Shown here: in pieces, positions 16,437 to 56,534 of the stretch
Layout: each line of letters begins with the position of its first letter
Numbering within the stretch: the stretch's first letter is position 1
Origin: Eubacteriales bacterium
GTDB lineage: Bacteria > Bacillota > Clostridia > Oscillospirales > CAG-272
NCBI GenBank assembly: GCA_045638805.1
Contig: JAZUBZ010000034.1
Coordinates: 7,458 to 71,457 of the forward strand
Length of the DNA: 64,000 bases
Reading direction: 5' to 3'
The notes under the pieces: model-generated
The model's database searches: none
What the model saw: only the letters and a program-made list of their open reading frames with translations
What the model was told of the DNA's origin: nothing
Translations under genes and position numbers: made by a program

Positions 16437-16448
16437 TTGGAAGTGAGA

Positions 16449-16916: not shown

Positions 16917-16931
16917 ATCATCTTCCTCCCA

Positions 16932-17852
16932 TCAGTTGTCATCCGAGGGTATCGTTTTTATAAAATCCTCAAATTTCGGCCGGCTGTTACGGGATGTTAT
17001 CTGTGCCGCCAAGGTCATGGGGTCAAAGCTTTCTCCGTCGGCATGATCACCGTCGGTATAAAAATCAAGGTCAGCTGCGATCTGCGCGGGTGTTCTGGTA
17101 TCAACAGGACTTTCGTTATCTGCATTATCATCTTCGGAGGGAGGGACTTCCTGCTTATCTGCAGTTTCGTTTTCCTCTTCAGTTGACTTGTCTGCAGGCC
17201 CCTCTGTCGGTATATCATCTGTGAATACGTTACCTCCCAAGTCGGGGATCACAAAGGAATTGTTATTTTCATCGTCGCTGCCATCGAATATGGAAAGAAC
17301 GTTATCTGTCTCTACATCATACTCACACTGATCACATTGAACATCGCTGTAACCGTTGGTGCCATCGTCTGTTATTACGTAAAATCCTTCATTACTGTTT
17401 TCACAGGTGGGAGATAAGTTGCCGGATTTATCATCATCTGTGATACAACCAATCTCCTCCACGTATTCTTCAAGAGTATCCTCCCATGAATTGTCTGCGG
17501 TTAAAGGCTCATCACCGTTTGCGCAGATCTCGTTAAGGTTTTCCTTGAGAGACTCAACAAAATATGAAAAACGATTCTTTTCAGCATTCAGGATATCGAA
17601 TATTTTGATAAGCTTACTCTTGTCGAGAGCTACGTCTGTCACAATGCTTTTTTCAAGCTCGTCAATTTTTTCCTCGGCTTCTCTGAGACGAACACCCTCG
17701 GCAAGAAGGCGGTGCTTCAGCTCTGCGTTTTCTCTGCAAACGGAATTGTATCTTTCGGAAACGTGCTCAACGTATTTATCTACCTCGCCCGTGTTATAGC
17801 CCATGACGCTTTTTGTAAAAGCAGGCTTGATAAGGCTGTTTTGTACACTCAT
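16932..17852 (-). CDS. DivIVA-domain protein with long acidic C-terminal tail
   Basis: N-terminus F.K..MGYN..EVD.Y.....ENAELK is the DivIVA domain. It sits in the ylmH-divIVA position of the cluster. Confidence 0.8.
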   Translation of the reverse strand: MSVQNSLIKPAFTKSVMGYNTGEVDKYVEHVSERYNSVCRENAELKHRLLAEGVRLREAEEKIDELEKSIVTDVALDKSKLIKIFDILNAEKNRFSYFVESLKENLNEICANGDEPLTADNSWEDTLEEYVEEIGCITDDDKSGNLSPTCENSNEGFYVITDDGTNGYSDVQCDQCEYDVETDNVLSIFDGSDDENNNSFVIPDLGGNVFTDDIPTEGPADKSTEEENETADKQEVPPSEDDNADNESPVDTRTPAQIAADLDFYTDGDHADGESFDPMTLAAQITSRNSRPKFEDFIKTIPSDDN

Positions 17853-17905
17853 AATTATTTCCTTTCCTGCGTTTTGTGACGCAACAGATCAGAGTAATGT
17901 TAAAC

Positions 17906-18760
17906 TCATATATACTTACGGACAGATATTTTCGCGCGTCCGCTTCGCGTTTCGCCTGTGAAGGCGTCGATTATATATTTTCCGTACCCTCGTACGGATA
18001 TCTTATCACCCGGTGAAAGTCTTTGGTCAGCCTCAGTAACGGTGACATAATTTATCTCAACAAGACCCGTGAGACAATATTCCTTAGCATCAGCTCTTGA
18101 AAGGTTAGCAATAGATGCAACGATAGAGTCGACTCTGTCGGATGCGGCTACAAGGGTCATTTGTTTGAATTCATGGGGTACCCTGAAACCGTCGGGTACT
18201 TTAAACGGTATGACGTTTACACTGTCTCGACCGATTTTGGTAAGACTTTCGCAAATAAATGGAGCTATAGTGTCGGAAGCAAATACAACAGCGGAAGATC
18301 TACCCGTTACGGCAATGTCTCCTATTACCTCGCGCTCAACGCCGAGGGAGAGTATGCTTCCCATATAATGTCTGTGAGAAAGCTCTGTGAAGCCGCTTCC
18401 GCTGACAGACAGTGGAACGATACCGAAGATTTCGTCGGTGGCGTAAGTGGATACGATCTCACAAAATTGTTTTTCTCTCTCCTCAGAGAAAATTTCTCCG
18501 GGGAATGATATAGCGGTGGCGTCAACGAATGACGGCACCATTACGCACACTCTTCTGTCTGCCTGCAGGGCACCGCCGAAGAAAAAACAGCGGGGAAGAA
18601 GTGTCGGGTATTCTTCGCGTACGGCGGTATAGTAGATTATCTGCTCGGCGGGAGTTAGGAATCTGCTGAAAACGAAATCGTATTCGCGTTTCATAGCGGT
18701 GTTGCAAAGATCTCCCGCTTTGGCATATGTTATGTTATTATTTTTATTTTTAAACGGCAT
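17906..18760 (-). CDS. YlmH-like RNA-binding protein (S4-domain family)
   Basis: Position directly after yggT in the conserved sepF-yggT-ylmH-divIVA block. The C-terminal S4-like segment RVDSIVASIANLSRADAKEYCLTGLVEINY supports the call. Confidence 0.7.
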   Translation of the reverse strand: MPFKNKNNNITYAKAGDLCNTAMKREYDFVFSRFLTPAEQIIYYTAVREEYPTLLPRCFFFGGALQADRRVCVMVPSFVDATAISFPGEIFSEEREKQFCEIVSTYATDEIFGIVPLSVSGSGFTELSHRHYMGSILSLGVEREVIGDIAVTGRSSAVVFASDTIAPFICESLTKIGRDSVNVIPFKVPDGFRVPHEFKQMTLVAASDRVDSIVASIANLSRADAKEYCLTGLVEINYVTVTEADQRLSPGDKISVRGYGKYIIDAFTGETRSGRAKISVRKYI

Positions 18761-23260: not shown

Positions 23261-23334
23261 TAAATGAAGGATAGTTCCTGATGATGGTGGTTTTACTTAT
23301 TCTAGGATATGTGATGAAAGGAGATTTAATTCAT

Positions 23335-24294
23335 ATGACACGATTACTTGCGTTTCTTTTAGCGTTGATGATGTGCCTAACGTTTACAGCGTGTAAAGAT
23401 AAAAACAAGGATGACACGGAAGAAAAGGATGATATACATATTGAGGGGGAAATGCAATTTGATAATAAAAAAGCACCAAGCGAGGCAACTATATTAAATG
23501 ATTTAGGGGAAAAATTGTTGGACAAAAATGAGTTTGTTAACCTGACAAACGTGACTACTGTAAAAAGTTTAACAGATGATGGTTATTTTAGTGTTACTTT
23601 AGAGGTACAAGCGGCAAGTGATTACACTGATTGGGTGTATGAAGTTGAGTTAGAATATACTAAGTATGACCAAGGATGGATGTTGGATAATGCATCTTGG
23701 CTATCCGAGGAGTATACCATTGCCAGAGTACCGACTTTAGAAGTTATTACTGAACTGGCTAATAATGTGGATAAGAGTGAAGTAAACTTTGGCTCAATGT
23801 TACCGGTAAGTAATGCAACTATAGATACGGACGATACACTTGAAACCGGGATCTTGTGGTTTACTTGGTCGTTTGAAGAGGAATACCCGCACGTATACCA
23901 AACTACAGTTTGTACAACGAAATGGTCGTATGATGTACTATCGGATGAATGGAAGTGTATTCCTTATGATGAGTCGTCAGGTGAGGCTAAACTTATATAT
24001 AATGTGACTCCCAAAGATGTTGATTTTTCCGGCGAATGGACCGGAAGTGGTTTTGTTTCTACGATTATAATTGAAGATTTTTCTTGGGACGGCTTTACTG
24101 TTACTGTTGACGGAGAATCAAGTTATTATCGGTCCATATATGGTCATCCCAAAACTAGTGAAAAATCCTTTGGGTGGTTCAGTGACGGTAGTAACTATAT
24201 ACATATAAGTTCAGGTCCTAGAGGTAGTAGTATACAACTTCTCTCGATTGGGCAAAGATCAACAACTCAAATTTTCTATGGCTCCCTCGATTAA
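23335..24294 (+). CDS. Hypothetical lipoprotein
   Basis: MTRLLAFLLALMMCLTFTACKDKNK (lipobox LTFTAC), RBS AAAGGAG, AT-rich. No family recognised. Confidence 0.65.
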   Translation: MTRLLAFLLALMMCLTFTACKDKNKDDTEEKDDIHIEGEMQFDNKKAPSEATILNDLGEKLLDKNEFVNLTNVTTVKSLTDDGYFSVTLEVQAASDYTDWVYEVELEYTKYDQGWMLDNASWLSEEYTIARVPTLEVITELANNVDKSEVNFGSMLPVSNATIDTDDTLETGILWFTWSFEEEYPHVYQTTVCTTKWSYDVLSDEWKCIPYDESSGEAKLIYNVTPKDVDFSGEWTGSGFVSTIIIEDFSWDGFTVTVDGESSYYRSIYGHPKTSEKSFGWFSDGSNYIHISSGPRGSSIQLLSIGQRSTTQIFYGSLD

Positions 24295-28738: not shown

Positions 28739-28767
28739 TTGACATCTACCGCAAAATGCAGTATAAT
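28739..28767 (+). promoter_or_regulatory. Promoter candidate for the LRR lipoprotein gene, with repeated operator-like boxes
   Basis: TTGACA, 17-nt spacer, TATAAT. Direct repeats GCAAAATGCGGTAT (28726) and GCAAAATGCAGTAT (28751). Perfect palindrome TTGTGTA-A-TACACAA at 28770-28784. Confidence 0.6.
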
Positions 28768-28809
28768 AATTGTGTAATACACAAAAATATATTTTTGGAG
28801 GTTGATTTT

Positions 28810-29205
28810 GTGAGAAAATTAATGGGTGTATTGTTGCTGACCTTAATTATTTGCTTGCTGGTAGGATGTGCCGAAGAAAAAGCTAGTCCGGCGGAAGATT
28901 TCAAGTATTACATTGAGGATAATGAGATTACAATTACAGGTTATACCGGGGATGATAGCGAAGTGTATATTCCATCTGAAATTGCAGGCTATAAGGTAAC
29001 CGGACTTGGATGGAGCGCTTTTGAGGATTGTAATACGATAATGTCGGTAAGCATTCCCGAATCCGTTGTGAATTTTGATAGTGTTGTATTCGTAAGGTGC
29101 GAAAAATTAATTACAGTAATTTTTCCGTCCCACATGGACATTGAAGAAGCAAAAGGTCAAATAGGTTCCAGCTGCTACAACTGTGTTGACATTAAGATCC
29201 GATAA
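28810..29205 (+). CDS. Lipoprotein with BspA-type leucine-rich-repeat segment
   Basis: GTG start 8 nt after GGAGG. VRKLMGVLLLTLIICLLVGCAEE lipobox. IPSEI..Y.VT.LG..AF..C....SV.IPESV pattern. Confidence 0.55.
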   Translation: MRKLMGVLLLTLIICLLVGCAEEKASPAEDFKYYIEDNEITITGYTGDDSEVYIPSEIAGYKVTGLGWSAFEDCNTIMSVSIPESVVNFDSVVFVRCEKLITVIFPSHMDIEEAKGQIGSSCYNCVDIKIR

Positions 29206-40371: not shown

Positions 40372-41727
40372 GTGGTCTTTAAAGAAGAGTTACATTGGAT
40401 TCTTGATGAAAAGCAGAAGCAATTTTGCGAAAAAGAATATCAAATAAACATTGACTTTGTACATTCGCTCGGCAAGAAATGTGATTGTGTTGGGTGGAGC
40501 TTGTTGAAAATGGATGAACCCGATGCTGATTTTGTTCTTGACGAAATAAAAGCTTTTTGCAAGAAAAACGGATGGACTGCTCGTGGATGGTATAAACGGA
40601 GCTATCCTGAAATCACAAGTGATTGGTTTGAATTAAAAACAAGTTGTTTTAAAGAAGCAACTTTTTGTGATAGAACCATTGTTTCAAGTGATAACGGCGA
40701 AGAATTGTATCTTGATGTAATCCGTGCATATCACGAATTATCACGTTCGCCTAAAGAGATACTTGAGATATGTGTTTCCGAGCGTTTCAGAAACGTTTGC
40801 ATAAAGCACAATATTGAAGGGGTAGATTTTTGTTGGGTTCAGGACAAAGGTAAATACGAATCCGAGCAATGGTTCCATATTTATCCGCAAAGGCAAATTG
40901 CCCGTATTGGGTGTGATCGTGATTTAAAAAAGACCGATATATTCAAGATCGAAGCATTGGGAGGCTCTTTGCCTAAAATAGCTTCTATATTTCATGAACT
41001 GCAACACATTGAACTCCAAAATTGTTATTTGGCGGAAGATATGCCGAGCGGCGGAATCGCTTATGTTTATTGTCCTAGGACAGATACTTACTGCGGAAGA
41101 AAGAAAATATTAATACATAAGGATACTGCTCAACTATTGATTTCTGAAAAAGCTCTTTCTCAGGCAGACTTACAGCCTGCTTGTGTTTTGACCCGGGTTC
41201 CAAATGGATACACGCTTGATAAAACAACGAAAAGACCAAAGCCGTCAGAAGAATATATCAGGCAGAGTTTAGTTTCTTATGAGAAAATAAAACGTTCAAA
41301 TCGTCCTGCACGTAACATAAGTGAAAAAGATGCACTTAAAGTTTTGCGAAAGGTTAAAAGTGACCGTAAAGAGGATTTTCAAAAGAGAATCTGCAAGGCA
41401 TTGGTGGAATCAGTAACTGATGTTGAGTATGAATTGCTTCTGCCTTATTATAAAATAGCAAATGGCGGCTTTATTTCTGATGAGTATGTACTGCTATCAT
41501 ACGAAAAATCCTTAGCTTCTACAAAAGAATTTTTTGATGAGTTAAAAAAAGAAGAGCTACTAGAGGAAATACCTGAGGGTAAAGTGTTTGCTACATGTGC
41601 GGATGGCGATGTTGTTATTGTAACCAAGCAAGGTGCAGTGTTGCGATTTGGACACGAAGCACCTGAAATCATCAACGATTGGAAGACACTTGCACAATTC
41701 TTTTTTGACGCAATCAACGAAGGTTAA
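40372..41727 (+). CDS. Hypothetical protein with C-terminal SMI1/KNR4 (SUKH)-like domain; immunity-protein-like
   Basis: C-terminus ...LLLPYYKIANGGFISDEYVLLS.....EIPEGKVFATCADGDVVIVTKQGAVLRFGHE... fits the SUKH pattern. AT-rich. GTG start after GAGGCGGTG. Confidence 0.5.
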   Translation: MVFKEELHWILDEKQKQFCEKEYQINIDFVHSLGKKCDCVGWSLLKMDEPDADFVLDEIKAFCKKNGWTARGWYKRSYPEITSDWFELKTSCFKEATFCDRTIVSSDNGEELYLDVIRAYHELSRSPKEILEICVSERFRNVCIKHNIEGVDFCWVQDKGKYESEQWFHIYPQRQIARIGCDRDLKKTDIFKIEALGGSLPKIASIFHELQHIELQNCYLAEDMPSGGIAYVYCPRTDTYCGRKKILIHKDTAQLLISEKALSQADLQPACVLTRVPNGYTLDKTTKRPKPSEEYIRQSLVSYEKIKRSNRPARNISEKDALKVLRKVKSDRKEDFQKRICKALVESVTDVEYELLLPYYKIANGGFISDEYVLLSYEKSLASTKEFFDELKKEELLEEIPEGKVFATCADGDVVIVTKQGAVLRFGHEAPEIINDWKTLAQFFFDAINEG

Positions 41728-45883: not shown

Positions 45884-46461
45884 GGGAAGAACCTCCGTAA
45901 GATGGTTTTCGTTCAAACATCCGACGTGGAGTCGGTATGTAATAACTTATTGTATGAATACTCAGAAAGTGCTTACTCTGGATTCCATTATATTATACCA
46001 CTTTTTTGTCCGATAATCAATATTACTTTTTCCACCTCGGAATTTTCATAAGCTTGCACAATTTATACGTCTTTTTTTGTGCAATTTTTACCGTGAGTAT
46101 GTTATTATCGAGAGTTACACCACAATATACTGTACTATTTTAACGAATGTCTTGTATCTTTTGCAGTCTTCCTACGCCTTTGACGGCTGAATTTAACTAC
46201 CATAGTAATAATATTGTCCCATGCGATAAATTTATAAAAACTTATGCATACAAGGTGAGATTGTTTTCTTGACAGTTTAAGAACTTATGTGATAGAATAT
46301 AGGCATCTTGAATATGTAAGCTTAACGCTAAAAAGAAAAACTTGATGTAAAGTGAAGATGCGGCTGAAAATTGTATTGTTTATTTATATATGAACAATTA
46401 TTCGGCTGTTGCTCTTAATGACAATTATACTTTTCTACTTCAAAAATACAAGGAGGTCTTT

Positions 46462-47076
46462 ATGCACATACCGACAGCGGAATCAACCGCAATAGATATA
46501 CTTACTTTTGACGAAGCCAGAATGCGCCGCGATGACAGCGCGGAATACGACCGCGAAAAATGGTTGTACATACCAGATTTTTATTCCGAATACCGATATA
46601 TTCTGGGGACCGCGGGAAAGCGACCTCTTATAGCTATCGGCATCAATCCGTCCACTGCCGAGCCCGACAATCTTGACAATACTCTCAAATCCGTGGAGCG
46701 CATTGCCCTCGGTAACGGATACGACTCCTTTATCATGTTCAACGTATACGCGCAAAGGGCTACAAACCCCGACCACATGGACAAGACCTTTAACGAAAGG
46801 CTCCACCTTGAGAATATGTGCGCATTCCGTTGGATACTTGAACGGTGCGAGGGTGTGCCCGGTGTATGGGCGGCATGGGGAACCATCGTTGAAAAGAGAG
46901 ATTACCTGAAGCGTTGCCTTGAGGATATGGTGCAGATAGGCAACGAGTTTGGCGCAGTGTGGTACAAGACTGGCAAAACGTCCGTAAAGGGGCATCCGCA
47001 TCACCCTCTGTATCTGAAAAAGGACTCAAAGCTTGAGCTTTTCGATATGCAGGGGTATTTTGAAAAAAGCTTTTAA
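46462..47076 (+). CDS. DUF1643-domain protein
   Basis: YRY.LG......PL.AIGINPSTA.....D.T........A...GY.....N.YA.RAT.P and GHPHHPLYL fit DUF1643. ATG after AAGGAGG. Confidence 0.7.
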   Translation: MHIPTAESTAIDILTFDEARMRRDDSAEYDREKWLYIPDFYSEYRYILGTAGKRPLIAIGINPSTAEPDNLDNTLKSVERIALGNGYDSFIMFNVYAQRATNPDHMDKTFNERLHLENMCAFRWILERCEGVPGVWAAWGTIVEKRDYLKRCLEDMVQIGNEFGAVWYKTGKTSVKGHPHHPLYLKKDSKLELFDMQGYFEKSF

Positions 47077-47097
47077 TTAAATATTGTACATGCTGAA

Positions 47098-47135
47098 AAG
47101 CAAAATGCTCTCGTAAAACCGAGAGCATTTTGCTT
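47098..47135. terminator. Bidirectional terminator
   Basis: 16-bp perfect stem AAGCAAAATGCTCTCG / CGAGAGCATTTTGCTT. Confidence 0.8.
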
Positions 47136-47167
47136 GTATGAAGTTAAAGAAGAGAAGAATCTTTCTA

Positions 47168-48568
47168 TTATTTATCCTGCTTGTTAGACTTAGCGCACTT
47201 AGCAACGATGAATCCAAGAGGAATAAGTGCAAGTACGTTGGGGATTACCATGATGTTGTTGAACATATCAGCAAGCTCCCAAACGAGGTCGTTCTTGAAG
47301 AGAGAACCGCCGAAGATGAAGAGGATAGCGATTACAGAGTAAACGATAGTCGCCTTCTTTCCGAAGAGGTACTCAACGTTCTGCTTACCGAAGAAGTTCC
47401 AGCTGATGATGGTTGTGAATGCGAAGAATGTAAGGCAGACAGCAATGATGATGTTACCTGCAGTCTGGTTGTCGAGAGCAGTACCGAGAGCGGTCTGCAT
47501 AAGATTGTTCTTGGTAAGCTCAGTAGCTGCAAGACCTTCAGCGGTACCGAGAGGACCACCGTTTGCGTAAAGTGTAGAGATAACAACGAGTGCGGTGATG
47601 GTGAGAACTACGAACGTGTCAATGAATACACCGATCATAGCAACAACACCCTGGTCGTGAGGCTTCTTTACTTCAGCCTGAGCGTGTGCGTGAGGTGTAG
47701 AACCCATACCTGCTTCGTTAGAGAAGAGACCGCGCTTTGCACCCTGGCTGATAGCAGCCTTGATAGCAGCACCCATAGTACCGCCGAGGAGAGCCTGAGG
47801 AGTGAATGCGAACTTGAAGATCATACCGAATGTTTCGGGTATAGCCTTGAAGTTGATAACGAGAACTACGATACCGACAACGAGGTAGATAACAGCCATG
47901 AGGGGAACGATCTTTTCAGCAACAGCAGCGATTCTCTTGATACCGCCGATGAAGATGAATGCGCAGATAACTGCGAGTACAGCACCGATGATCCATGTGG
48001 GGATGCCGAAAGCAGTCTCAATGGAGCTTGAGATAGAGTTGGACTGTACCATTGAGCCGATGAAGCCGAGAGCGATGGTAAGAGCGACAGCAAAGAATAC
48101 AGCGAGGAACTTACCGAAGAAGCCCTTGTATGCCTTCTTGATGTAGTAAACGGGACCACCGAGTACTTCGCCGTTTTCCTTAACGACACGTGTTTCCTGA
48201 GCGAGAGTAGCCTCGGCGTAGATGGTAGCCATACCGAAGAATGCGATGACCCACATCCAGAAGATAGCACCGGGACCACCAACGAGGATAGCGCCGCAGG
48301 CACCTACGATGTTACCTGTACCTACCTGAGCGGCAATAGCGGTAGCAAGCGCCTGGAAGGAGGAAAGACCGCCCTTGCTATTACCCTTCTTGAAGATACC
48401 GCCGAAGACCTTTTTGAAACCTTCGCCGAAGCATCTGATCTGAACGAATTTGGTTCTGAATGAGAAGTAGAGACCTGCGCCTACGAGAAGAAAGATAAGA
48501 ATGTAGTCAGACATGTAGGCATTGATTGTCTGAACGATGGGAAGCAGAAAAGCTTCGATTTTTTCCAT
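47168..48568 (-). CDS. Alanine/glycine:cation symporter (AGCS family)
   Basis: Polytopic membrane protein with ...FRTKFVQIR...GGLSSFQALATAIAAQVGTGNI.G... and ...SNEAGMGS.P.AHA... motifs. The ATG at 48568 follows CAGGAGG. Confidence 0.85.
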   Translation of the reverse strand: MEKIEAFLLPIVQTINAYMSDYILIFLLVGAGLYFSFRTKFVQIRCFGEGFKKVFGGIFKKGNSKGGLSSFQALATAIAAQVGTGNIVGACGAILVGGPGAIFWMWVIAFFGMATIYAEATLAQETRVVKENGEVLGGPVYYIKKAYKGFFGKFLAVFFAVALTIALGFIGSMVQSNSISSSIETAFGIPTWIIGAVLAVICAFIFIGGIKRIAAVAEKIVPLMAVIYLVVGIVVLVINFKAIPETFGMIFKFAFTPQALLGGTMGAAIKAAISQGAKRGLFSNEAGMGSTPHAHAQAEVKKPHDQGVVAMIGVFIDTFVVLTITALVVISTLYANGGPLGTAEGLAATELTKNNLMQTALGTALDNQTAGNIIIAVCLTFFAFTTIISWNFFGKQNVEYLFGKKATIVYSVIAILFIFGGSLFKNDLVWELADMFNNIMVIPNVLALIPLGFIVAKCAKSNKQDK

Positions 48569-48599
48569 GACTAAAAGTCCTCCTGAAATAAAGTAAATG

Positions 48600-48850
48600 A
48601 AAAAAGACTCCGCGTACACGCCGAGCCTCAGAAAAAGACACCGAAAACTTGCCACAGAGCCACGGCTCCGCATTCGGTTGCACTTTGTCCTTTTGCCTGA
48701 GAGATTAGCGGTATTCGCTTTGCACCTTCGGCACTCAATTTAATGAGCTTCTCCAAAGTTCTATCGGCTTACAGTCCCGTCCCGTAGGGACACCTGAGAG
48801 CGTTACTCCTTCGGTTGCCGTGTCGGCATTTCCTGCAAGCGTCATATAGA
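48600..48850 (-). promoter_or_regulatory. Tandem glycine riboswitch leader of the AGCS symporter gene
   Basis: The minus strand shows two aptamers. Aptamer 1: ...CAGGAAATGCC...CCGAAGGAGTAA...CTCAGG...GGGAC. Aptamer 2: GGAGAAGC...GCCGAAGGTGCAA...CTCTCAGGCAAAAGGAC. A hairpin plus T-run lies before the RBS. Confidence 0.8.
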
Positions 48851-48872
48851 GTATTTATTTTTCATGAGTAGT

Positions 48873-48901
48873 ATTATAGTACAAAGAATGACAAATTGCA
48901 A
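48873..48901 (-). promoter_or_regulatory. Promoter candidate for the glycine-riboswitch transcript
   Basis: Minus strand: TTGCAA, 17-nt spacer, TATAAT. Confidence 0.5.
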
Positions 48902-49077
48902 CAGTAAAATGAACATTTTTTTAACTTCGGCGTTTTGCTGTATTTTAGCCCTTTAGCACGGTAAAACGCTGTCAAAATTTGTACATATAGCACATTACAG
49001 TTTACTGCGTGTGGAAAAAGGTCAGTATATGGGCGAATGAAATCACAGAAAAGGGGAGAGAAAAAGTACAATTACAC

Positions 49078-49106
49078 TTGACATCTGTGGTTGTTTTTGA
49101 TATAAT
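49078..49106 (+). promoter_or_regulatory. Promoter candidate for tRNA-Pro
   Basis: TTGACA, 17-nt spacer, TATAAT, 17 nt upstream of the tRNA 5' end. Confidence 0.65.
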
Positions 49107-49123
49107 ACTACTGTTATGTATTT

Positions 49124-49197
49124 CGGGGTGTGGCTCAGTTTGGTAGAGCGCGACGTTCGGGACGTCGAAGCCGCTGGTTCGAATCCAGTCACTCCGA
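49124..49197 (+). tRNA. tRNA-Pro (anticodon CGG), no encoded CCA
   Basis: Acceptor CGGGGTG/CACTCCG plus discriminator A. D-arm GCTC-AGTTTGGTA-GAGC. Anticodon arm CGACG-TTCGGGA-CGTCG. T-arm GCTGG-TTCGAAT-CCAGT. Confidence 0.9.
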
Positions 49198-49250
49198 AAA
49201 AGAAAAAGCAGGGATTGCCCTGCTTTTTCTTTTTCGGAGTGACTGGATTC
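49181..49250. repeat. Perfect 33-bp inverted repeat (4-nt loop) whose left arm is the tRNA-Pro 3' end plus trailer; the inner part acts as terminator
   Basis: 49181-49213 GAATCCAGTCACTCCGAAAAAGAAAAAGCAGGG, loop ATTG, 49218-49250 CCCTGCTTTTTCTTTTTCGGAGTGACTGGATTC. I checked the pairing base by base. Confidence 0.95.
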
Positions 49251-49257
49251 AGAAAGA

Positions 49258-49350
49258 GCACATTCGCTTACGCGAAGTGCGGCGTGGATCTAGTCCGATG
49301 TTCGCACTAGTTACATCACGAGCGGGTTACCCAAAGGACGCAGACGCGTC
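49258..49350. repeat. Conserved tRNA-downstream module, copy B, ending in a plus-strand hairpin + T-run
   Basis: Hairpin GCACATTCGC-TTAC-GCGAAGTGC, then the core GGCGTGGATCTAGTCCGATGTTCGCACT, then ATCACGAG, then AGGACGC-AGA-GCGTCCT followed by TTTATTTTC. Confidence 0.8.
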
Positions 49351-49353
49351 CTT

Positions 49354-50766
49354 TTATTTTCTCTTAAACAATTTTACGAATAAGTTTTTTATGCCGGGTA
49401 ATTTATGATATATGTTCAGATCAGCTATCAATTCATCACAATTCTGATATCTGTCGTTGGGGTGACGCTCAATGCATTTGGAAATTATGTATTCAAGTCC
49501 GCGGGGGAGCGCGGGATCCGTTTTACGGACAGGTAATAATTCGTATGGAGGTTGCGTAGGATCAATCCCTGTTACAAGGTAGTGCATTGTAATTCCAAGG
49601 GAATATATATCTGTTCTTGCATCGATCGGGCAGAATTGAGAAAAACATTCCGGTGCGGCATAAGATAAGGTACCTAATATTGTCGATTTTCCGGCATTGA
49701 TCCTGTCACAAGTATCAACTCTGTGAAAATCAACAACTTTAAGGCTGCCGTCTGTTGTAAGAATGATGTTTGCAGGCTCTATATTACGGCAAACGTGAGG
49801 AGGTGTCTTTTTATGAAAATGATTCAGAAGGCTGCAAAGATCTTTAGCCCACCTAACGACTGTGTCAGCGGACTGAGCTCCGTTACTTCTCAGCAGACTT
49901 GCCAGGCTTGTACCTTCAATACGTTCATTTACGATAAAAATATATTCATTATCCTCGATAATATCAAAACATTCCGGAATTAAGGGATGCTTGTTTTTTA
50001 TTATCCAATACGTCTCGTTTAAATATAATTCACGCATGGTGGGTGCATAATAACGGTTTGTTTTATCCCATACTTTCATTGATAGTTTCTTTGACGTACT
50101 GTTGTCCTGTACAATAAACATCGAAGAGATTCCGTTGTTACATACAAATTCAGTGACCGAATATCTGTCGCCTATTACTTTGCCGAGAAGTTTATCCTTT
50201 ATGGTGGGAACAGTTGCGTTTTTTGATGGGATGGTCGGAGGATTCGGAAATGATTGTTTTTTTACGTCATATGTATTATACGAATGGTTCGGTTTATAGA
50301 ATATATATTTCTCAGAATTCGCAAAACAAATTTCGTCAGCGGGATTAAGCTGATATTTCTTCCCGGGTATCATTAAATTTCCATTCAAACAAGTGCCGTT
50401 CAGGGAAGTGTTGTCTCTGATAAACCAACGGCTGTTCTCATAATGGAATGAAGCATGATGTTTTGCCACCATACGGTTTGACATGAGACGGATGTCACAA
50501 GACTCATGTTTTCCTACGGTTATTATTTCTTTATCAAACTTTAATACTTCGTTAGTGCTTTCGACTGTAAGTGACAAAGAACAGGAATATAAAATAGTGG
50601 TTATTCCCGGAGGGTTCATAACGTATTCACCTATGTCGTACATATCCAACATATGATCATCCGGATCATTAATGATCTTAAATTCTTCGCCGCATATTTT
50701 ACACTTCTTTTTTATATAGCAGCAGTTGGTCTCCAATACCTCATATTCATGCTTGCACGGAGTCAT
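49354..50766 (-). CDS. Zinc-ribbon + FHA-domain + Ser/Thr-kinase-like protein with degenerate catalytic motifs (predicted pseudokinase)
   Basis: N-terminal C..........CC......C..C. FHA segment (ITVGKHESCDIRL...VAKHHA...NTSLNGTCLNG). Kinase fold with SMKV, AAPE and DIYSLG retained, but CRNIEPAN in place of HRD.KP.N, DFH in place of DFG, and no G.G..G loop. Confidence 0.75.
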   Translation of the reverse strand: MTPCKHEYEVLETNCCYIKKKCKICGEEFKIINDPDDHMLDMYDIGEYVMNPPGITTILYSCSLSLTVESTNEVLKFDKEIITVGKHESCDIRLMSNRMVAKHHASFHYENSRWFIRDNTSLNGTCLNGNLMIPGKKYQLNPADEICFANSEKYIFYKPNHSYNTYDVKKQSFPNPPTIPSKNATVPTIKDKLLGKVIGDRYSVTEFVCNNGISSMFIVQDNSTSKKLSMKVWDKTNRYYAPTMRELYLNETYWIIKNKHPLIPECFDIIEDNEYIFIVNERIEGTSLASLLRSNGAQSADTVVRWAKDLCSLLNHFHKKTPPHVCRNIEPANIILTTDGSLKVVDFHRVDTCDRINAGKSTILGTLSYAAPECFSQFCPIDARTDIYSLGITMHYLVTGIDPTQPPYELLPVRKTDPALPRGLEYIISKCIERHPNDRYQNCDELIADLNIYHKLPGIKNLFVKLFKRK

Positions 50767-51082
50767 GTTGATAGTCTCCCTCTGTTCGTATTATTAAAAT
50801 AAGAATTACAGTACTTTATAACAGAAGTACTGTCTCCTTTGTTTATTGTATCATATAAGTTAACGACTTGCAAGCACTCGGATGGACTAAAACGTGGGGA
50901 GTTTGTATTAGTTGAGAATTTTGTGTATATGATGTCTGTAATAAAAATTGCCGTTGATGTGTGTCAACGGCAGATGAGTAATAATGACTAAGCTCCACCT
51001 TTTCAGCCTTGTCATTGCGTAACAAATAAGTCCCCCGATATGCGATTCAACGAAATGCATGTCGGGGGACTTTTCTGTTTAC

Positions 51083-53686
51083 TTATCTTACGAAAGCTTT
51101 GTGGAAGCGCGCGAACATGGTCGCAGTTTCGCTTCTCTGCGCCTTGTCCTGAGGTGCGAGGCTTACCGTGTCTCCATTCTGCTTACCCGTTACGATTCCG
51201 ACACCGTTTGCCCAAGCAACTGCCTCGGCAAAGCCTGCGTAGGGGCTGATCTTGCCTGCATCGGGGAATGCAGAAATGTCTGCCTCCTCTGCCATTTCAG
51301 CTTTCTTGTAGTCCTTCATATATCTGTAAAGGAATACTGCAACCTGCTCACGTGTTACGAGAGCATCGGGGGAGAATGTGGTAGCACCTGTTCCCGTTGT
51401 AACTCCGTTTTGATATGCCCAAAGCACAGCGGGGGCGTACCATTCGCTTGCGGGTACGTCTGCGAAAGGATTATTGGCTGTATCAACAGCAGGTCTTCCT
51501 TCTATATTATATAGGAGCTGAACGATCATTGCGCGGCTGGTCTGTGTGGCGGGGGCAAAAAGTGTATCTGACGTGCCGTTCATAAGTCCCGTATCATAAG
51601 CGTAACCGACGGTAGGATAGAACCAATCATTATTTGACACGTCGGTGAACGCCATCTTCTTGTTTGAGGTAACAGCGTTATATGCTGCCTTTACCTGTTC
51701 TGCGGACATTGTGCCTTGGCTAAGTGAGAACATATTGATCATTGAGCCTTTAACCAAATTATCCTCTGTCATCGAGTAACCGCCAAGCGTTATCTTTTTG
51801 TAGGAGGTGTCAATATCAGTTTTGAGTCCGCCTGAGTGACGTTCCTCTCTTGTAAGCTCACCGTTTACGTAAAGACGCGCTTTCTTGTTATCATAGGTTA
51901 AGATAACGTGGATCCATTCATTTTCTTCAATGGGGGTGTGACATACGCTGAAAACGCCCGAATTTCTGGCTAACTCTACGTATGCTGACAGTATACCGTC
52001 TTCAACTGCTAAGTTGACAAACGCGTCCTTAAGGCTGAGTATCTGCTGATAAGGCCCGGTATCGGCGAGGTTAAAGTACGCCTCAAGGGTGAATGCGTGA
52101 CGGATAGCGTCGATATCCTCAAGGTCGAAGTCATAGGAAACTACGTTCATGCCGCCAAAGGATGCGGCCATTTTACCTATAGTCTCATCTGTGACGAGCT
52201 TCGTGGGGGCAGTGATCTTACCGCTGTGTCCCTTGAAGTCAGATTGATCACCGTAGGAATAATCAACACCGTAAAGTGTCTTAAGTGAGGTGTCAATGGT
52301 ATCGTCTCGCCCAACGTTTACGGTCCCCTTTGCCTTAACGGGAGCACTCTTCTTGCCGAAAGCACCCTCAGCCGTTACGGATATCTCGTAATCAGTGTCA
52401 TATTCGAGGCCGTAGATGGTGACTGTTCTGTTAGTACCGAAGGGTATGGAAGGATCGTTATATGTGTTCATGGTGAGCGTTTCGCCGCCGTTTACGGGAG
52501 TAACATAGATATTGTAGCTTTCTACGTAGTCGTAGTTCTTGTCGCTTGCAGGTTTTGCGTTCGCAGTGAACGTAATGTCGATAGAGTCAAAGTCACCCCT
52601 GTCCTTTACTGTGACGGTCACCCCTTCGCCGTATATGGGGGCGGAACCTTTAAGACAGTATGCGTTCGGATTTGCCGCCTTGGCGGGATCGTTGAAGTAT
52701 ATGAAATCCTTCGGCTTCTGCGATGAGTCAAGGATCCAATTTTCTCCTCCGTATATAAGCTGACCTGTGGTAAGATCAACTCGGTAAAGTTCGGTGGTGC
52801 CGTCCTTTTTAACGTCAAACACGGTAATGGATGAACCGAAAAGAGTATCCTCACACTGTCTGTAGTATTTTCCGACAGTACCTGTGATCACGCTTGTAAA
52901 GCCTGCTGACTGGTCGATAACGCCGGGGTTCATAGGATCAGGGTGAGAATGTCCCGAAATGTGTACAAGCTGAGGATAATTCTTCAAAAACTCGCGGGTC
53001 TCGGGTAGGTATCTGTCGCCCTCCTGATAGTCACCGAAAAGCGTATCCTCAAATCCAATGTGGGAAACTAAGAAAATGTGTCCCTTGTAGCCCGTTGCCT
53101 CTACCTCTTTTACTGCAGACACGATATAATCGTGCTTCGGCTCAAAATCGCTTGAGCTCCCCGCGACAGCAAGGCTTACTTTGATCACAGGAACTTTACC
53201 GCCGAGCCAATATATCATCTCGGTCTCCTGACCGACCTGCTCTCTGAAGTCATTTTCGATGTTGGGGTTGTAGCACTCGTGGTTTCCAAGCATAGAAATA
53301 GTGGTTCCTACAGCGGCACCGGCGCCGGCACCCTTGCCCGTAAAGGAGTCAACCTCAACGGTGAGTTTCTCGCTGTTTTCCGCAACGATGCTCTGGTAGG
53401 CTGCAAGCTCCTCGGGTGTGCCGCCCTCCGTAAGGTCGCCTGCGGCGATAAAGGCGTCAACACCGCCGATACGTTTCATTGCCGCATAGGCATTTTTAAG
53501 CTTATCAACGGAGTCTCCGTAGCCGATGTGGATGTCGCTTCCCACGGCGAAGCGGACGACAACGTCGCTTCCCTTGGGGATCGCAGACAGCTTGTTTGCA
53601 GTCGGGATGAACGCTGCTATGGCGGGGCAGACGGTCATCGACAGTATAAGTACAAAAATTAGAATACTTGATATGATCTTTTTCAT
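51083..53686 (-). CDS. Secreted metallophosphoesterase with LamG/ConA-like domain and three C-terminal SLH repeats
   Basis: Signal peptide. GSDIHIG, AGDLTEGG, GNHE and GHSHPD phosphoesterase motifs. LamG-like segment (WIHVILTYDNKKARLYVNGE). SLH repeats (F.DV....WY...V.WA...G...G). Confidence 0.8.
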   Translation of the reverse strand: MKKIISSILIFVLILSMTVCPAIAAFIPTANKLSAIPKGSDVVVRFAVGSDIHIGYGDSVDKLKNAYAAMKRIGGVDAFIAAGDLTEGGTPEELAAYQSIVAENSEKLTVEVDSFTGKGAGAGAAVGTTISMLGNHECYNPNIENDFREQVGQETEMIYWLGGKVPVIKVSLAVAGSSSDFEPKHDYIVSAVKEVEATGYKGHIFLVSHIGFEDTLFGDYQEGDRYLPETREFLKNYPQLVHISGHSHPDPMNPGVIDQSAGFTSVITGTVGKYYRQCEDTLFGSSITVFDVKKDGTTELYRVDLTTGQLIYGGENWILDSSQKPKDFIYFNDPAKAANPNAYCLKGSAPIYGEGVTVTVKDRGDFDSIDITFTANAKPASDKNYDYVESYNIYVTPVNGGETLTMNTYNDPSIPFGTNRTVTIYGLEYDTDYEISVTAEGAFGKKSAPVKAKGTVNVGRDDTIDTSLKTLYGVDYSYGDQSDFKGHSGKITAPTKLVTDETIGKMAASFGGMNVVSYDFDLEDIDAIRHAFTLEAYFNLADTGPYQQILSLKDAFVNLAVEDGILSAYVELARNSGVFSVCHTPIEENEWIHVILTYDNKKARLYVNGELTREERHSGGLKTDIDTSYKKITLGGYSMTEDNLVKGSMINMFSLSQGTMSAEQVKAAYNAVTSNKKMAFTDVSNNDWFYPTVGYAYDTGLMNGTSDTLFAPATQTSRAMIVQLLYNIEGRPAVDTANNPFADVPASEWYAPAVLWAYQNGVTTGTGATTFSPDALVTREQVAVFLYRYMKDYKKAEMAEEADISAFPDAGKISPYAGFAEAVAWANGVGIVTGKQNGDTVSLAPQDKAQRSETATMFARFHKAFVR

Positions 53687-53870
53687 TACAGTTATGCCTT
53701 TCTCAAAAAAATGTTCATATCACAATTATACAATATTTTTTATAAATTGTAAAGCCTTGTTGGCAAAAGAAACGATAAATATACAAGATGAAGCTAAATA
53801 AATGTTGACATTACAATTTCCGTCATGTATAATGAAAACATCAAAACATATATGAACGGAGATAATATGT

Positions 53871-56534
53871 ATGAAAAAACTATTGTCATTTATACTGTGC
53901 ATTACAATGCTTTTGACTACGGCAGCGTTTGCAGCGCAAGCGTCCGACGATGAAAAGCCTTGGTCACCTGCATACACAGAGATCAAAAAGATCGAACGTC
54001 CATCGGACGTTATCGCACGTTTTGTGGTCAGCAGCGATGCCCACATCGGTTACAGCTATTCCTATGCAAAGCTGAGAAATGCTTACGAAACCATCGGAAA
54101 GCTCGGCGGAGCAGATGCGTATATATTTGCCGGTGACGTGACCGAAATGGGTTGGGACTATGAGCTTGATATGTTCATGGATATCGTCTCAAGCTATACA
54201 AAAGAACTGACAGTTGATATTGAAGGCTATACCCGCAAGGGTGTGGGCAAGAATGCTCCCGTAGACACCACGATCATTGCCGCAGGTAACCACGAGTACT
54301 ACGCCTACGAAGACGATGCGAAGCATCAGAGAGTGTTCAGCGAAAGAACCGGACAGGCGCTTGACAAGCTGTATTGGATAGGCGGTGTGCCTGTAATCAA
54401 GCTTAGTATGATCGGAACGGAAGAGTCTGAGGTTTACTACGACAGACACGAATTTATCAAGTCTTCTCTTGAAGAGGTAGTAGCCAGCGGCTGGAAGGGA
54501 CATATCTTCCTCATATCGCACACCCCCATGGGTGATACGGTCATGGCTGCTTCATCTACAAAGAACGACGGATTCTCCGACGAGACCGAGGCTTTACTTA
54601 AAAAATACCCTCAGATCATCCACGTATCGGGGCATTCTCACCACAATCCCTATTCACCTCGATTTATAGACCAGTCCGCAGGATTTACAAGCATCAGTGA
54701 CGGAACTGTCGGAAAGACCATTGACGACGGCTTCGGCGAGGGTGGTAAGATAGGTTCCTTCGGAGTTATGTTCGACGTAAAACGTGACGGCACCACCGAG
54801 GTGCGCAGACTCGACTTCCAGAACGGACGTGTTATGTTCGGTGATGAGGAATGGATCCTTGACGCATCCGACACTGCAGAAGATTTCATCTATTTTGCAG
54901 ACAAGGATGAGGCGAAAAATCCCGATTCATATGTTCTCAAGGCGTCCGCCCCCTGGTTTAATGGCGATGAGGTGATCTCCATCCGTAACATGGGAGACCA
55001 CGATTCTGTTGAAATAACATTCCCCAAAGCGCAGACCAAGACGAAGAACAATTACGATTACGTGTACTCATATACCATTAAGGCGGTACCGAAAAACGGT
55101 GACGGACAGATAATAGATACGGTAATTCCCAATAACGACCACATTCCGGGTGGATACGGTTCCGACAGTATAACTACAGTCATGACAGGAATTCCGTGGG
55201 ATACGGAATATTATATCGAAATCTACGCTAAGTCCTGCTTTGGTTATGAGAGTAATACTATAAAGAGTACCGATACCTTTATCATAGAGCCACGCCCCGT
55301 TAACAATAATACCCGCGTACTGTACGATATCGATTATTCCTACGGAACATCACTCGACCTTATGGGACACCCCTCTGACGTGCCCGCGTTCTTAGCACCT
55401 AAGTTTGATAAGGATTTAAACCGCTATGCGGTGAACTTTATCGGCCTTTCCACCAATATGTATCACTTCACCGAAGAAACCCTTGATGCAATGCGTTACG
55501 GTTTTACTGTTGAGGCAAACGTAAAGATGAACTACTCTAATGAGCCTCAGGAGATATTAGGCAACTACAACTTCGGTGGCCTGGCGATTACTACACAGTC
55601 CGACACGATATGTGTGCGATTTAATCCCAAGGGTGCAGACTCCGGAGAGTTCTGCAGAACGAGCATGCCTATGGGAAAGTGGACTCACATTGCGGTAACG
55701 TATGACAGCCAGTATCTCACTCTGTATATCAACGGAGAAAAGAAGACGAGCGAATATTGCCCCGGCGGAATCGGCAACGAGTACGATAATGAAACTCCGG
55801 TGGATGAGATCATGTTCAACGTTGGCGGACGCAGAAGAACGGGAGAGGATCCGTCTCTGCTTAAGAATTCATCCGTGAACTTTGTCAGAATGTATTCCGG
55901 CACTATGACAGACGAGGCTGTTCGTGATGCGTACAATAAATCTCTTGAGCCTGTGAAGAATTTTGCATTTGAGGATGTAAAAACATCCGACTGGTTCTTT
56001 GAGCCTGTTCTGTACTCCTTCGCTACAGGACTTATGAGCGGAACATCCGACACGGTATTCGCTCCCGCTACCCAGACAAGCCGCGCCATGATAGTACAGC
56101 TCCTCTATAATATAGAGGGAAGACCCACGGTGGATACGTCTGACAATCCTTTCGCAGACGTACCCGCAAGCGAGTGGTATGCACCCGCTGTGCTTTGGGC
56201 ATATCAGAACGGAGTTACAACAGGAACGGGTGCTACCACATTCTCTCCCGACACTCTCGTTACCCGTGAGCAGGTTGCGGTATTCCTTTACAGATATCTG
56301 AAGGACTACAAGAAGGCTGAAATGGCAGATGGTGCTGACCTTTCATCTTTCCCCGACGCAGATAAGATCAGCCCCTATGCAGGATTTGCAGAGGCTGTTG
56401 CTTGGGCAAACGGTGTTGGCATCGTAACCGGTAAACAGAACGGCGACGATATTATGTTAGCGCCTCAAGATAAAGCTCAGAGAAGTGAAACTGCGACCAT
56501 GTTTGCCCGCTTCCACAAGGCTTTTGTAAGATAA
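53871..56534 (+). CDS. Paralogous secreted metallophosphoesterase-LamG-SLH protein (divergent orientation)
   Basis: Same architecture (SSDAHIG, AGDVTEMG, GNHE, GHSHHN; WTHIAVTYDSQYLTLYINGE; three SLH repeats). The last ~165 aa are nearly identical to the neighbour. Confidence 0.8.
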   Translation: MKKLLSFILCITMLLTTAAFAAQASDDEKPWSPAYTEIKKIERPSDVIARFVVSSDAHIGYSYSYAKLRNAYETIGKLGGADAYIFAGDVTEMGWDYELDMFMDIVSSYTKELTVDIEGYTRKGVGKNAPVDTTIIAAGNHEYYAYEDDAKHQRVFSERTGQALDKLYWIGGVPVIKLSMIGTEESEVYYDRHEFIKSSLEEVVASGWKGHIFLISHTPMGDTVMAASSTKNDGFSDETEALLKKYPQIIHVSGHSHHNPYSPRFIDQSAGFTSISDGTVGKTIDDGFGEGGKIGSFGVMFDVKRDGTTEVRRLDFQNGRVMFGDEEWILDASDTAEDFIYFADKDEAKNPDSYVLKASAPWFNGDEVISIRNMGDHDSVEITFPKAQTKTKNNYDYVYSYTIKAVPKNGDGQIIDTVIPNNDHIPGGYGSDSITTVMTGIPWDTEYYIEIYAKSCFGYESNTIKSTDTFIIEPRPVNNNTRVLYDIDYSYGTSLDLMGHPSDVPAFLAPKFDKDLNRYAVNFIGLSTNMYHFTEETLDAMRYGFTVEANVKMNYSNEPQEILGNYNFGGLAITTQSDTICVRFNPKGADSGEFCRTSMPMGKWTHIAVTYDSQYLTLYINGEKKTSEYCPGGIGNEYDNETPVDEIMFNVGGRRRTGEDPSLLKNSSVNFVRMYSGTMTDEAVRDAYNKSLEPVKNFAFEDVKTSDWFFEPVLYSFATGLMSGTSDTVFAPATQTSRAMIVQLLYNIEGRPTVDTSDNPFADVPASEWYAPAVLWAYQNGVTTGTGATTFSPDTLVTREQVAVFLYRYLKDYKKAEMADGADLSSFPDADKISPYAGFAEAVAWANGVGIVTGKQNGDDIMLAPQDKAQRSETATMFARFHKAFVR

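Follow-up and report, generated by a model that had tools for sequence, protein, structure and literature searches.

The stretch of DNA analysed here, referred to below as the window, comprises 64 kb (64,000 nucleotides) of contig JAZUBZ010000034.1 from an Eubacteriales bacterium of the CAG-272 lineage (assembly GCA_045638805.1). It contains, beside a tRNA-Pro(CGG) gene, a kinase-like gene on the minus strand (49354..50766), which is the subject of this report (Table 1). The open reading frame (ORF) starts with ATG and is intact over 470 codons. An FHA domain (PF00498; residues 82-148, E 6e-16, 59 bits vs. a cut-off of 20.7) and a kinase domain (Pkinase, PF00069; residues 214-405, E 2e-25, 90.1 bits vs. 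a cut-off of 31.7) were identified in its product by Pfam. An AlphaFold2 (AF2) model built from 74 homologs, in which all three domains are confident (mean pLDDT 85), shows a zinc ribbon at residues 8-32, an FHA sandwich at 64-156, a disordered linker at 161-184, a bilobal kinase at 189-455, and a terminal helix at 460-468. The three-part architecture proposed in a preliminary description of this DNA, i.e. a Cys cluster followed by an FHA domain and a Hanks-type kinase, was confirmed.

The kinase domain belongs to the Hanks superfamily by both profile and bilobal fold (pLDDT mostly >90). Its motif register was established by HMMER alignments to the Stk1/PknB structures of S. aureus (4eqm and 9ymt), which are the best sequence matches among solved structures (E 4e-23), and to M. 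tuberculosis PknB, whose structure 5u94 was also the best Foldseek match of the modelled domain (TM 0.85, rmsd 2.7 A). In these alignments, the catalytic loop HVCRNIEPANIIL (CRNIEPAN) falls on 'HRDIKPQNILI', i.e. on the HRDxKPxN motif, and 'DFH' occupies the DFG position; the catalytic loop had therefore been placed correctly in the preliminary description. The beta3 segment 'SMKV' is aligned with 'AIKA', and 'AAPE' and 'TDIYSLG' are also in register, so that the beta3 Lys, APE, and DIYSLG motifs are indeed kept. The segment 'VCNNGISSMF' takes the position of 'GGGGMSTVY', where the family has IGRGGFY; the G-x-G-x-x-G pattern is missing, and the absence of a glycine-rich loop, which is replaced by CNNGIS, was likewise verified. 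In total, the protein retains K231 (beta3), E251 (alphaC), N333 (Mg-binding), D346 (DFG Asp), the APE motif (A370-P-E), D386, and R439, and has lost the Gly-rich loop, the hinge Tyr (Y282R), the HRD Asp (D328N), the catalytic-loop Lys (K330E), and the DFG Gly (G348H). Further changes are present in the activation segment and P+1 region (C353, K360, S368, and C374). The HRD Asp and the Lys two residues on, which mark a competent kinase, are both present in the family sequence YRDMK and both absent from CRNIE. In operational terms, a pseudokinase is a kinase fold in which at least one of the VAIK Lys, HRD Asp, and DFG Asp is missing (PMC12599244). With Asn in place of the HRD Asp and the fold retained, the window protein would be classified as such, and its sequence predicts that it cannot transfer phosphate.

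Relatives were sought among 5.8 billion proteins with a word-indexed search and among 1.84 billion cluster representatives with HMMER, the latter exhaustively. Neither search yielded any other protein with >50% identity, and the window protein is thus a singleton; no ortholog was found among GTDB species representatives, in which the best match is 37% identical. The best matches overall (E 1e-123 to 1e-60, 39-50% identity) are collinear from end to end, and the nearest relatives are 45-50% identical to the window protein. These proteins constitute a family of cytoplasmic zinc-ribbon/FHA kinases (P0002-P0017, P0121-P0175, L008, L043, and others), which is restricted to Clostridia and is characterized by the C-lobe signature 'GLEYIISKC...RYQ', the tail 'LP.PKG.F.KLF.KK', and, in many members, a CxH...CxxC ribbon and an FHA domain. 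The window protein belongs to this family, having a kinase domain with the C-lobe signature and the tail and a ribbon and an FHA domain upstream.

A table of motifs in approximately 80 relatives indicates that most of them are canonical (G.GGF, AMK, E, YRDMKPAN, DFG, and AAPE) and that CRN occurs together with DFH in none. Several members exhibit losses of their own, namely FRNMDLTN with DFA in P0015, LGNLTPSN with HLE in P0150, and CLNLNPRN with DLV in P0159, and the VAIK Lys, HRD Asp, or DFG motif has also been lost in P0155, P0161, P0172, P0140, P0158, P0169, L009, L013, and others. By this comparison, a single kinase family that is otherwise canonical has seen many independent losses of catalytic residues, and the window copy is one of several independent degenerates in a family that appears to be mostly active. 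The preliminary description had predicted either a pseudokinase or an enzyme with non-canonical chemistry. The former is in keeping with the changes at the HRD Asp, the catalytic-loop Lys, the Gly-rich loop, and the DFG motif, but the latter, as a conserved trait, is largely contradicted by the canonical G.GGF, YRDMKPAN, and DFG motifs of the closest homologs, none of which shares both substitutions.

The members closest to the window protein are 62-77% identical among themselves, whereas the window protein is only 45-50% identical to them in pairwise comparisons. Because its mean identity to outgroups is 36.7%, compared with 45-49% for these siblings, it is placed on an accelerated long branch. 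Of the 54 columns that are conserved in at least 85% of the other family members, 45 are kept in the window protein. The non-conservative deviations are concentrated around the catalytic cleft and in the activation segment (R282, N328, E330, C353, K360, S368, and C374); where conserved hydrophobic positions differ, most substitutions are conservative (Y>F, L>I, and I>V), and the C-lobe core is intact. As far as the alignments indicate, the gene is a lineage-specific degenerate on a long branch, but that it is a recent one, as had been considered, cannot be shown. In a simulation of unconstrained substitution, which is lenient in that indels were ignored, 5% of ORFs remained open at 10% extra amino acid divergence and <1% at 15-20%.

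The N-terminal region contains the Cys and His residues C4, H6, C15, C16, C22, and C25, and the CxH...CxxC pattern formed by four of them (C4-x-H6 and C22-x2-C25) is common to P0002, P0003, P0008, P0012, and P0014. In the AF2 model, the ribbon consists of strands at residues 8-13, 17-22, and 28-32 (pLDDT ~80-90). The FHA strands extend across residues 64-156 with a pLDDT of about 90, and the domain is an FHA domain by both profile and fold, with the FHA domain of Dun1 as the best sequence match; the top Foldseek match of the whole model was Rad53 1-466, which contains both FHA and kinase domains. A comparison with the FHA structures of GarA/Rv1827, Dun1, and Rad53 and with a table of the family revealed that the phosphate contacts are altered, with G-K instead of G-R and A-K-H-H instead of S-R-x-H (S-R-R-H in GarA), while the NG motif is kept. 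Ala is found at the 'Ser' position in roughly half of the family members. The domain had initially been described as a recognisable phosphothreonine-binding FHA domain; the recognition holds, but the domain is less canonical than this wording implies, as the phosphate-contacting Arg and Ser are replaced by Lys and Ala. The protein ends 15 residues past the kinase domain and has no transmembrane (TM) helix. Its C-terminal helix has a hydrophobic moment of 0.65, ranking fifth among the 459 11-mers of the protein, and the amphipathic tail of the family aligns where TseD-like relatives have a TM helix.

The gene lies in a slot with variable content. Counterparts of the valyl-tRNA synthetase (ValRS) encoded in the window are 98-99% identical in other metagenome-assembled genomes (MAGs) labelled 'Clostridia bacterium', and the next tier (~82%) is found in Ruminococcaceae/Oscillospiraceae. 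Three congeneric loci (L089-L091) share the order ValRS, SLH gene, SLH gene, slot, tRNA-Pro, Na/Ala symporter, and DUF1643. In blastn comparisons with these loci, positions 46448-49259 and 51070-56534 of the window are matched at 88 and 78% identity, respectively, whereas positions 49260-51069 are unmatched. The slot of L089-L091 is about 440 bp long and consists mainly of a 152-bp unit repeated ~2x (87-92% matches; L089 18839-19169), each unit terminating in an incomplete copy of the tRNA-Pro 3' end (ATCGAATCCAGTCA), after which comes a hairpin. No extra tRNA was detected in these repeats by ARAGORN, and they may be scars of repeated integration or excision. In a fourth congeneric locus (L088), the slot (16290-18146) has the same tRNA-Pro/SLH borders and contains a Vut_1 gene (queuosine-precursor transporter family) and a short-chain dehydrogenase gene, flanked by a repeated 'CGTGGAT...CGATG.TTGCA' motif and a AAAAAGAAAAGCAGGG hairpin. 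A tblastn search with the window protein against L088-L094 found nothing at E<=1; two of these loci (L093 and L094, 92% ValRS identity) have lost synteny and are uninformative on the slot. Thus, three different slot contents are found (in the window, in L088, and in L089-L091) between flanks that are 88-93% identical, and both the variability and the composition are those of a genomic island.

The insert has a GC content of 0.39, compared with 0.47-0.48 in its flanks, and homologous genes in other Clostridia have GC contents of 0.33-0.42. Because the gene is absent from syntenic congeneric loci and its GC content is like that of the family and not that of the host, it is an accessory gene, which the window lineage most probably acquired from a Clostridia donor of lower GC content, at a hot spot of high turnover. 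The suggestion that this site is a landing zone for acquired DNA was thus substantiated by comparison, since in the congeneric genomes (L088-L091) the flanks are conserved but the gene is missing and the slot is occupied by something else. The tRNA acceptor and T-arm sequence is repeated in inverted orientation just downstream of the tRNA-Pro gene, and parts of this arrangement recur in L088 and L089; the perfect inverted repeat so formed could serve in recombination or as a terminator in both directions. No integrase was found among the neighbours in the window, a single copy of the tRNA 3' end is present there (<=3 mismatches), and no repeat links the insert borders above shuffled controls. 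Integrase-mediated insertion was accordingly set aside as undemonstrated, neither an integrase nor att-type repeats being present in the window.

The kinase-like gene has a GC content of 0.382 (0.380 at third codon positions), vs. means of 0.467 and 0.491 over 51 ORFs in the window (z = -1.8 and -1.4, respectively). It is clearly AT-rich, as had been stated, but this does not set it apart from all of its neighbours, as five or six other ORFs of the window have similarly low values. Those with GC contents of 0.32-0.38, equal to or below that of the kinase-like gene (6886-7443, 10612-11139, 23281-24294, 28756-29205, and 40372-41727), may be further acquired genes. The description of the gene as monocistronic agrees with its surroundings, i.e. 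an upstream SLH gene with its own hairpin (51021-51079), a promoter-like site of its own, and a convergent tRNA gene downstream; such a layout is plausible, though the signals are consensus matches only. The leader hairpin (50808-50833) was considered as an attenuator and rejected, as its fold is no better than those of shuffled sequences (z = -1.4).

Table 1. Positions of the kinase-like gene, its domains and signals, the borders of the slot, and the fusion proteins of related loci.
Feature	Position	Strand	Basis or remark
Coding sequence, 470 amino acids (aa): zinc ribbon, FHA, pseudokinase, and C-terminal amphipathic helix	49354..50766	-	ORF, Pfam, AF2
Zinc-ribbon module, residues 4-32	50671..50757	-	ligands C4-x-H6 ... 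C22-x2-C25
FHA domain, residues 64-156	50299..50577	-	Pfam PF00498
Hanks-type kinase fold, residues 189-455, catalytically degenerate	49402..50202	-	PknB/Stk1 alignments, motif table, Foldseek
C-terminal amphipathic basic helix IKNLFVKLFKR	49360..49392	-	family signature 'LP.PKG.F.KLF.KK'; AF2 helix 460-468
Own expression signals of the kinase-like gene (promoter-like site, leader hairpin, ribosome-binding site)	50776..50873	-	
Ribosome-binding site AGGGAG	50782-50776	-	9 nt upstream of start; sequence
Leader hairpin and U-run	50833-50808	-	sequence
Promoter-like TTGCAA-17-TACAAT	50873-50845	-	consensus scan
Perfect TTGACA-17-TATAAT promoter before tRNA-Pro	49078-49106		consensus scan
tRNA-Pro(CGG)	49123-49198	+	ARAGORN; Rfam tRNA 63 bits
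Perfect 33-nt inverted repeat, 4-nt loop	49181-49213/49218-49250		left arm formed by tRNA-Pro 3' end and A-rich tract
Left border of variable slot: tRNA-Pro and inverted repeat with terminator-like hairpin	49123..49250	+	
Strain-specific insert of 1.8 kb holding the gene	49260..51069		no counterpart in congeneric syntenic loci (blastn vs. L088-L091)
Right border of slot: hairpin just after the stop of the SLH/metallophosphoesterase gene	51021..51079	-	inverted repeat; homology resumes at ~51070
PARG-GDSL-FHA-ribbon-kinase fusion, 1012 aa	L008 8312-11350		Oscillospiraceae MAG
PARG-GDSL-ribbon-kinase fusions	L009 200-2734; L024 5775-8450		
GDSL-ribbon-FHA-kinase fusion	L043 7716-9821		
PARG macrodomain and/or GDSL/SGNH fused to ribbon/FHA kinase	L012 2613-5609; L019 2645-5641		
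TIR-kinase fusion, 453 aa	L013 3611-4972		rumen Clostridiales MAG; HND, His replaces catalytic-loop Lys

Pfam domains were counted over 63 family members. FHA is present in 49 of them, GDSL/SGNH hydrolase domains in 19 (as fusions), SseB-like domains in 18, the microbial PARG macrodomain in 11, zinc ribbons in several, and TIR in two to three. The fusions of PARG and/or GDSL modules to the kinase (L008, L009, L012, L019, L024, and L043) span 700-1012 aa, and the hydrolase is encoded next to the kinase where it is not fused (L001, L005, and L006); together with L003, PARG or GDSL is fused or adjacent in 10 loci. The TIR part of the fusion in L013 matches the PADLOC models SAVED_TIR and ThsB.

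Two types of genomic context were found. The first resembles a mobile element and is that of the closest homologs, P0005 and P0007 (L001 4123-12068 and L002 6190-15757), in which the kinase is followed by a conserved set of genes for a 1025-aa AAA_22/TPR protein, a sigma-70-r4-like protein, a PemK toxin, DUF3789, AbiD (PADLOC score 315 bits), and either serine recombinases or an integrase. The second is related to type VII secretion systems (T7SS): WXG100 genes and an RHS protein are encoded in L005, L006 has one WXG100 gene along with DUF4176 and a DUF6382-FHA gene, and DUF4176 is found in L095 and L096. In L012, L019, and L043, the fusion gene lies directly upstream of genes for DUF6382-FHA, zinc-ribbon/DUF805, PP2C, a membrane kinase, and a giant Ig-domain protein, a set that matches TseJ, TseF, TseD, and TseI of T7SSe (PMC11217815 section 9), components that were described by Garrett & Palmer 2024 (PMC11217815). 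The family is thus encoded directly beside T7SSe-like clusters in L006, L012, L019, and L043, and near one in L008. Among the GTDB loci retrieved, a TseJ-like DUF6382-FHA gene was present in 25 and a gene for a TseI-like giant Ig protein in 30. An all-vs-all comparison of neighbours in 12 loci revealed no universal neighbour besides PARG/GDSL and, in a subset, T7SSe genes. The PARG/SGNH/FHA-kinase architecture is not described in the T7SS paper (PMC11217815), in the bacterial pseudokinase review and kinome atlas, or in the articles returned by full-text literature searches, and searches for PARG+GDSL+kinase and for FHA+SGNH+anti-phage found nothing relevant.

None of these partners accompanies the gene in the window. 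There is no PARG or GDSL homolog among the ORFs, so that the SGNH/GDSL hydrolase fused or adjacent in the family is missing here, and phmmer searches of the 64 kb with TseJ, TseF, WXG100, and DUF4176 queries recovered nothing but the FHA domain of the gene itself. No PP2C, second kinase, or T7SS gene is present nearby in the window, nor are methylase or BREX genes found among the neighbours. The earlier statement that no known system is recognisable here accordingly applies to the window, which contains neither T7SSe nor SGNH/PARG partners, but not to the protein and its family: the kinase domain is closest to TseD/TsjD, and its immediate family has links to both SGNH/PARG modules and T7SS-like loci. 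As to the remaining surroundings, a tandem glycine riboswitch (48675-48845, minus strand), whose two aptamers score 66.9 and 32.1 bits, precedes a gene for a Na/Ala-family symporter (47168-48673, minus strand) in an ordinary arrangement. On the other side of the slot, two divergently transcribed paralogs (51083-53686, minus strand, and 53871-56534, plus strand) encode surface proteins with metallophosphoesterase, fn3/LamG, and SLH domains. They share ~77-78% nucleotide identity with their counterparts, compared with 88-93% for flanking genes, and appear to be fast-evolving cell-surface proteins.

Outside its own family, the closest populated relatives of the kinase domain are the TseD/TsjD-type kinases of T7SSe and T7SSj (34-41% identity over residues ~194-450), and TPR-tailed kinases of Bacillaceae among them fit the description of T7SSj TsjD (PMC11217815). 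TseD/TsjD kinases have a canonical active site, a TM helix, and an extracytoplasmic helical or TPR domain, none of which is found in the window protein; the latter has instead an N-terminal ribbon and FHA domain, and an amphipathic helix in place of the TM helix. A TseD-type kinase is encoded together with TseJ (DUF6382-FHA), TseF (PPM phosphatase), TseI, TseC, and WXG100 (PMC11217815). An assignment as a T7SSe TseD-type kinase was therefore rejected, given the lack of a TM helix, a C-terminal domain, and Tse partners in the window. The PASTA kinases PknB, PrkC, and Stk1 share the Hanks fold and the bacterial-type motifs and provide the best matches among solved structures, but membership in the Stk1/PknB PASTA group (NCBIfam NF033483) was also rejected (136.8 bits vs. 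450; no TM helix, PASTA repeats, or catalytic Asp). Rad53, Chk2, and Dun1 have the same domain order, with an N-terminal FHA domain followed by the kinase; in contrast to the window protein, they are active, have the canonical FHA Arg/Ser contacts, and lack a zinc ribbon and an amphipathic tail. The likeness is one of convergent architecture.

An inactive kinase fold has a bacterial precedent in T7SS. The pseudokinase EssB binds FHA domains of EssC in a phospho-independent manner in T7SSb (PMC11217815 section 9; PMC12599244). The EssB/YukC and EssC pair thus combines a dead kinase fold with FHA domains outside the pThr-binding consensus, in a secretion context akin to that of the relatives of the window protein. 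However, EssB resides in the membrane, all three of its catalytic motifs are degraded, and sequence similarity to it is not detectable at this level, whereas the window protein keeps the VAIK Lys and the DFG Asp and carries its own FHA domain. The pseudokinase families ActPs1-3, GLW, CP1, DYD, and DLHK fall under the same operational definition as the window protein. They are conserved families, found mostly in Actinobacteria, Cyanobacteria, and Proteobacteria, and loss of the VAIK Lys is common among them (10.1101/2025.01.12.632604; PMC12599244), whereas the window protein is a sporadic degenerate in a mostly canonical family of Clostridia. Judged by these descriptions, membership was rejected, as taxonomy, architecture, and motifs misfit and the window protein keeps the Lys. 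No architecture with FHA, zinc ribbon, SGNH, or PARG is described in either source (10.1101/2025.01.12.632604 or PMC12599244). HER3/ErbB3 has the same replacement of the catalytic-base Asp by Asn and likewise keeps the Lys, the Asn, and the DFG Asp; it has, however, a functional Gly-rich loop, whereas the window protein has also lost this loop, the hinge residue, and the catalytic-loop Lys, and the comparison is an analogy only.

The reading that we favour, with about an even chance of being right, is that the gene encodes an acquired orphan pseudokinase, most likely a non-catalytic adaptor. The C-terminal helix would tether the adaptor at the inner face of the membrane, and the FHA and pseudokinase surfaces would dock onto the Hanks-kinase/FHA signalling proteins of the cell itself; such docking may modulate or titrate these resident proteins, i.e. 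the product may act as an adaptor or a decoy. Precedents for such a role are EssB, with its binding to the FHA domains of EssC, and HER3, an HRN pseudokinase that pairs with an active kinase. The long branch suggests that constraint became weaker once the gene had parted from its usual partners. A retained function is suggested because the frame is open despite at least 10% excess divergence, the expression signals are intact, the damage is centred on the active site, and the AF2 model is confident. Several points weigh against this reading. As there is no ortholog with >50% identity, purifying selection is unmeasurable and the substitutions are not demonstrably maintained. The excess divergence touches 17% of the family-conserved columns, which is not far below the overall excess, as expected under weak constraint. 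The promoter and terminator calls are consensus matches only, and promoter matches are no commoner than in shuffled sequence. The non-canonical phosphate-binding residues of the FHA domain weaken any phospho-dependent docking model, and the 64-kb window holds no partner, which leaves the adaptor role without an identified target. Finally, the proposed membrane binding of the C-terminal helix is based on analogy with MinD-type amphipathic helices.

The main rival, which is possible although we consider it doubtful, is that the gene is a functionless relic, i.e. a kinase gene that was carried into the slot without SGNH/PARG or T7SS partners, lost its purpose, and is drifting towards a pseudogene, with the degenerate catalytic and FHA residues as an early stage of decay. 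The protein is a singleton without a close ortholog and lies on a long branch relative to all siblings; it deviates at nine of the 54 conserved columns, which is among the lowest retention in the family, and functional residues of both the kinase and the FHA domain have been hit. The absence of the partners of its homologs and the rapid turnover of the slot also speak for a relic. However, a 470-codon frame has been kept intact in AT-rich DNA, ~5% of unconstrained ORFs surviving 10% extra divergence in the simulation, and the gene still has an intact start codon, an intact ribosome-binding site, and an intact promoter-like site. The Zn ligands, the C-lobe core, the APE motif, R439, and the C-terminal helix are retained, the model reaches a pLDDT of 85 across the three domains, and changes at hydrophobic positions are mostly conservative.

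A more far-reaching proposal, which we hold to be unlikely, concerns the family as a whole: it would represent an undescribed conflict or immunity module (PARG, SGNH, ribbon/FHA, and TseD-like kinase) at T7SSe-type loci of gut and rumen Clostridia, in which an arms race would have turned the kinase into a pseudokinase repeatedly and orphan dead copies would have been selected as decoys or regulators of TseD-type signalling. Such a module might serve to detect or undo ADP-ribosyl or acyl modifications that incoming toxins introduce, the kinase part being a sensor or switch.

It is quite unlikely that the protein is an atypical nucleotide binder, which would use K231, E251, N333, and D346 for weak or altered catalysis (a HER3-like HRN enzyme) or as a nucleotide-dependent switch. 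The beta3 Lys, the alphaC Glu, the Mg-coordinating Asn, and the DFG Asp are indeed kept, and the replacement of Asp by Asn is isosteric, as in HER3. With HRN in place of HRD, HER3 still binds ATP and acts as the allosteric partner of an active kinase. In the window protein, however, only one Gly is left in the Gly-rich loop, Arg takes the place of the hinge Tyr, Glu that of the gamma-phosphate-contacting Lys, and His that of the DFG Gly, and the altered pocket residues are conserved in no relative, so that there is no sign of a selected alternative chemistry. Nucleotide-binding pseudokinases have been reviewed (PMC4718504).

A single-gene anti-phage defence kinase of the PD-T4-6/Stk2 type is very improbable: although the PADLOC models PD-T4-6 (up to 131 bits) and mad6 (113 bits) match, the gene is accessory in a variable slot, and some relatives are encoded beside AbiD, PemK, or recombinases or are fused to TIR, these PADLOC matches are generic (all 63 family members match, and a PknB/PASTA model scores as high at 136.8 bits), the score of the NCBIfam MAD6 model, 101 bits, is below its cut-off of 460, PADLOC matches neither the PARG/GDSL modules nor the AAA_22/TPR neighbour, and known defence kinases phosphorylate their targets while the catalytic Asp is lost here. 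MADS MAD6, BREX PglW, and PD-T4-6 were likewise rejected as assignments (101 vs. 460 for MAD6 and 32 vs. 990 for PglW), no partners of these systems being present.

Taken alone, the gene is one more sporadic bacterial pseudokinase, in which catalysis has been stripped away while the fold, the ribbon, the FHA domain, and a putative tether helix persist. The locus is also an example of a cargo slot that is hypervariable, lies downstream of tRNA-Pro(CGG), and lacks an integrase. The greater value of the gene is as an entry to a kinase family that was not found described in the literature searched. This family is unusual in comprising cytoplasmic paralogs of T7SSe/T7SSj kinases in its fusions to SGNH, PARG, SseB-like, and TIR domains, and in its many independent losses of catalytic residues. 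If the family regulates or protects against T7SS toxins, it would connect Ser/Thr phospho-signalling with ADP-ribose removal and with antagonism between bacteria in gut Clostridia.

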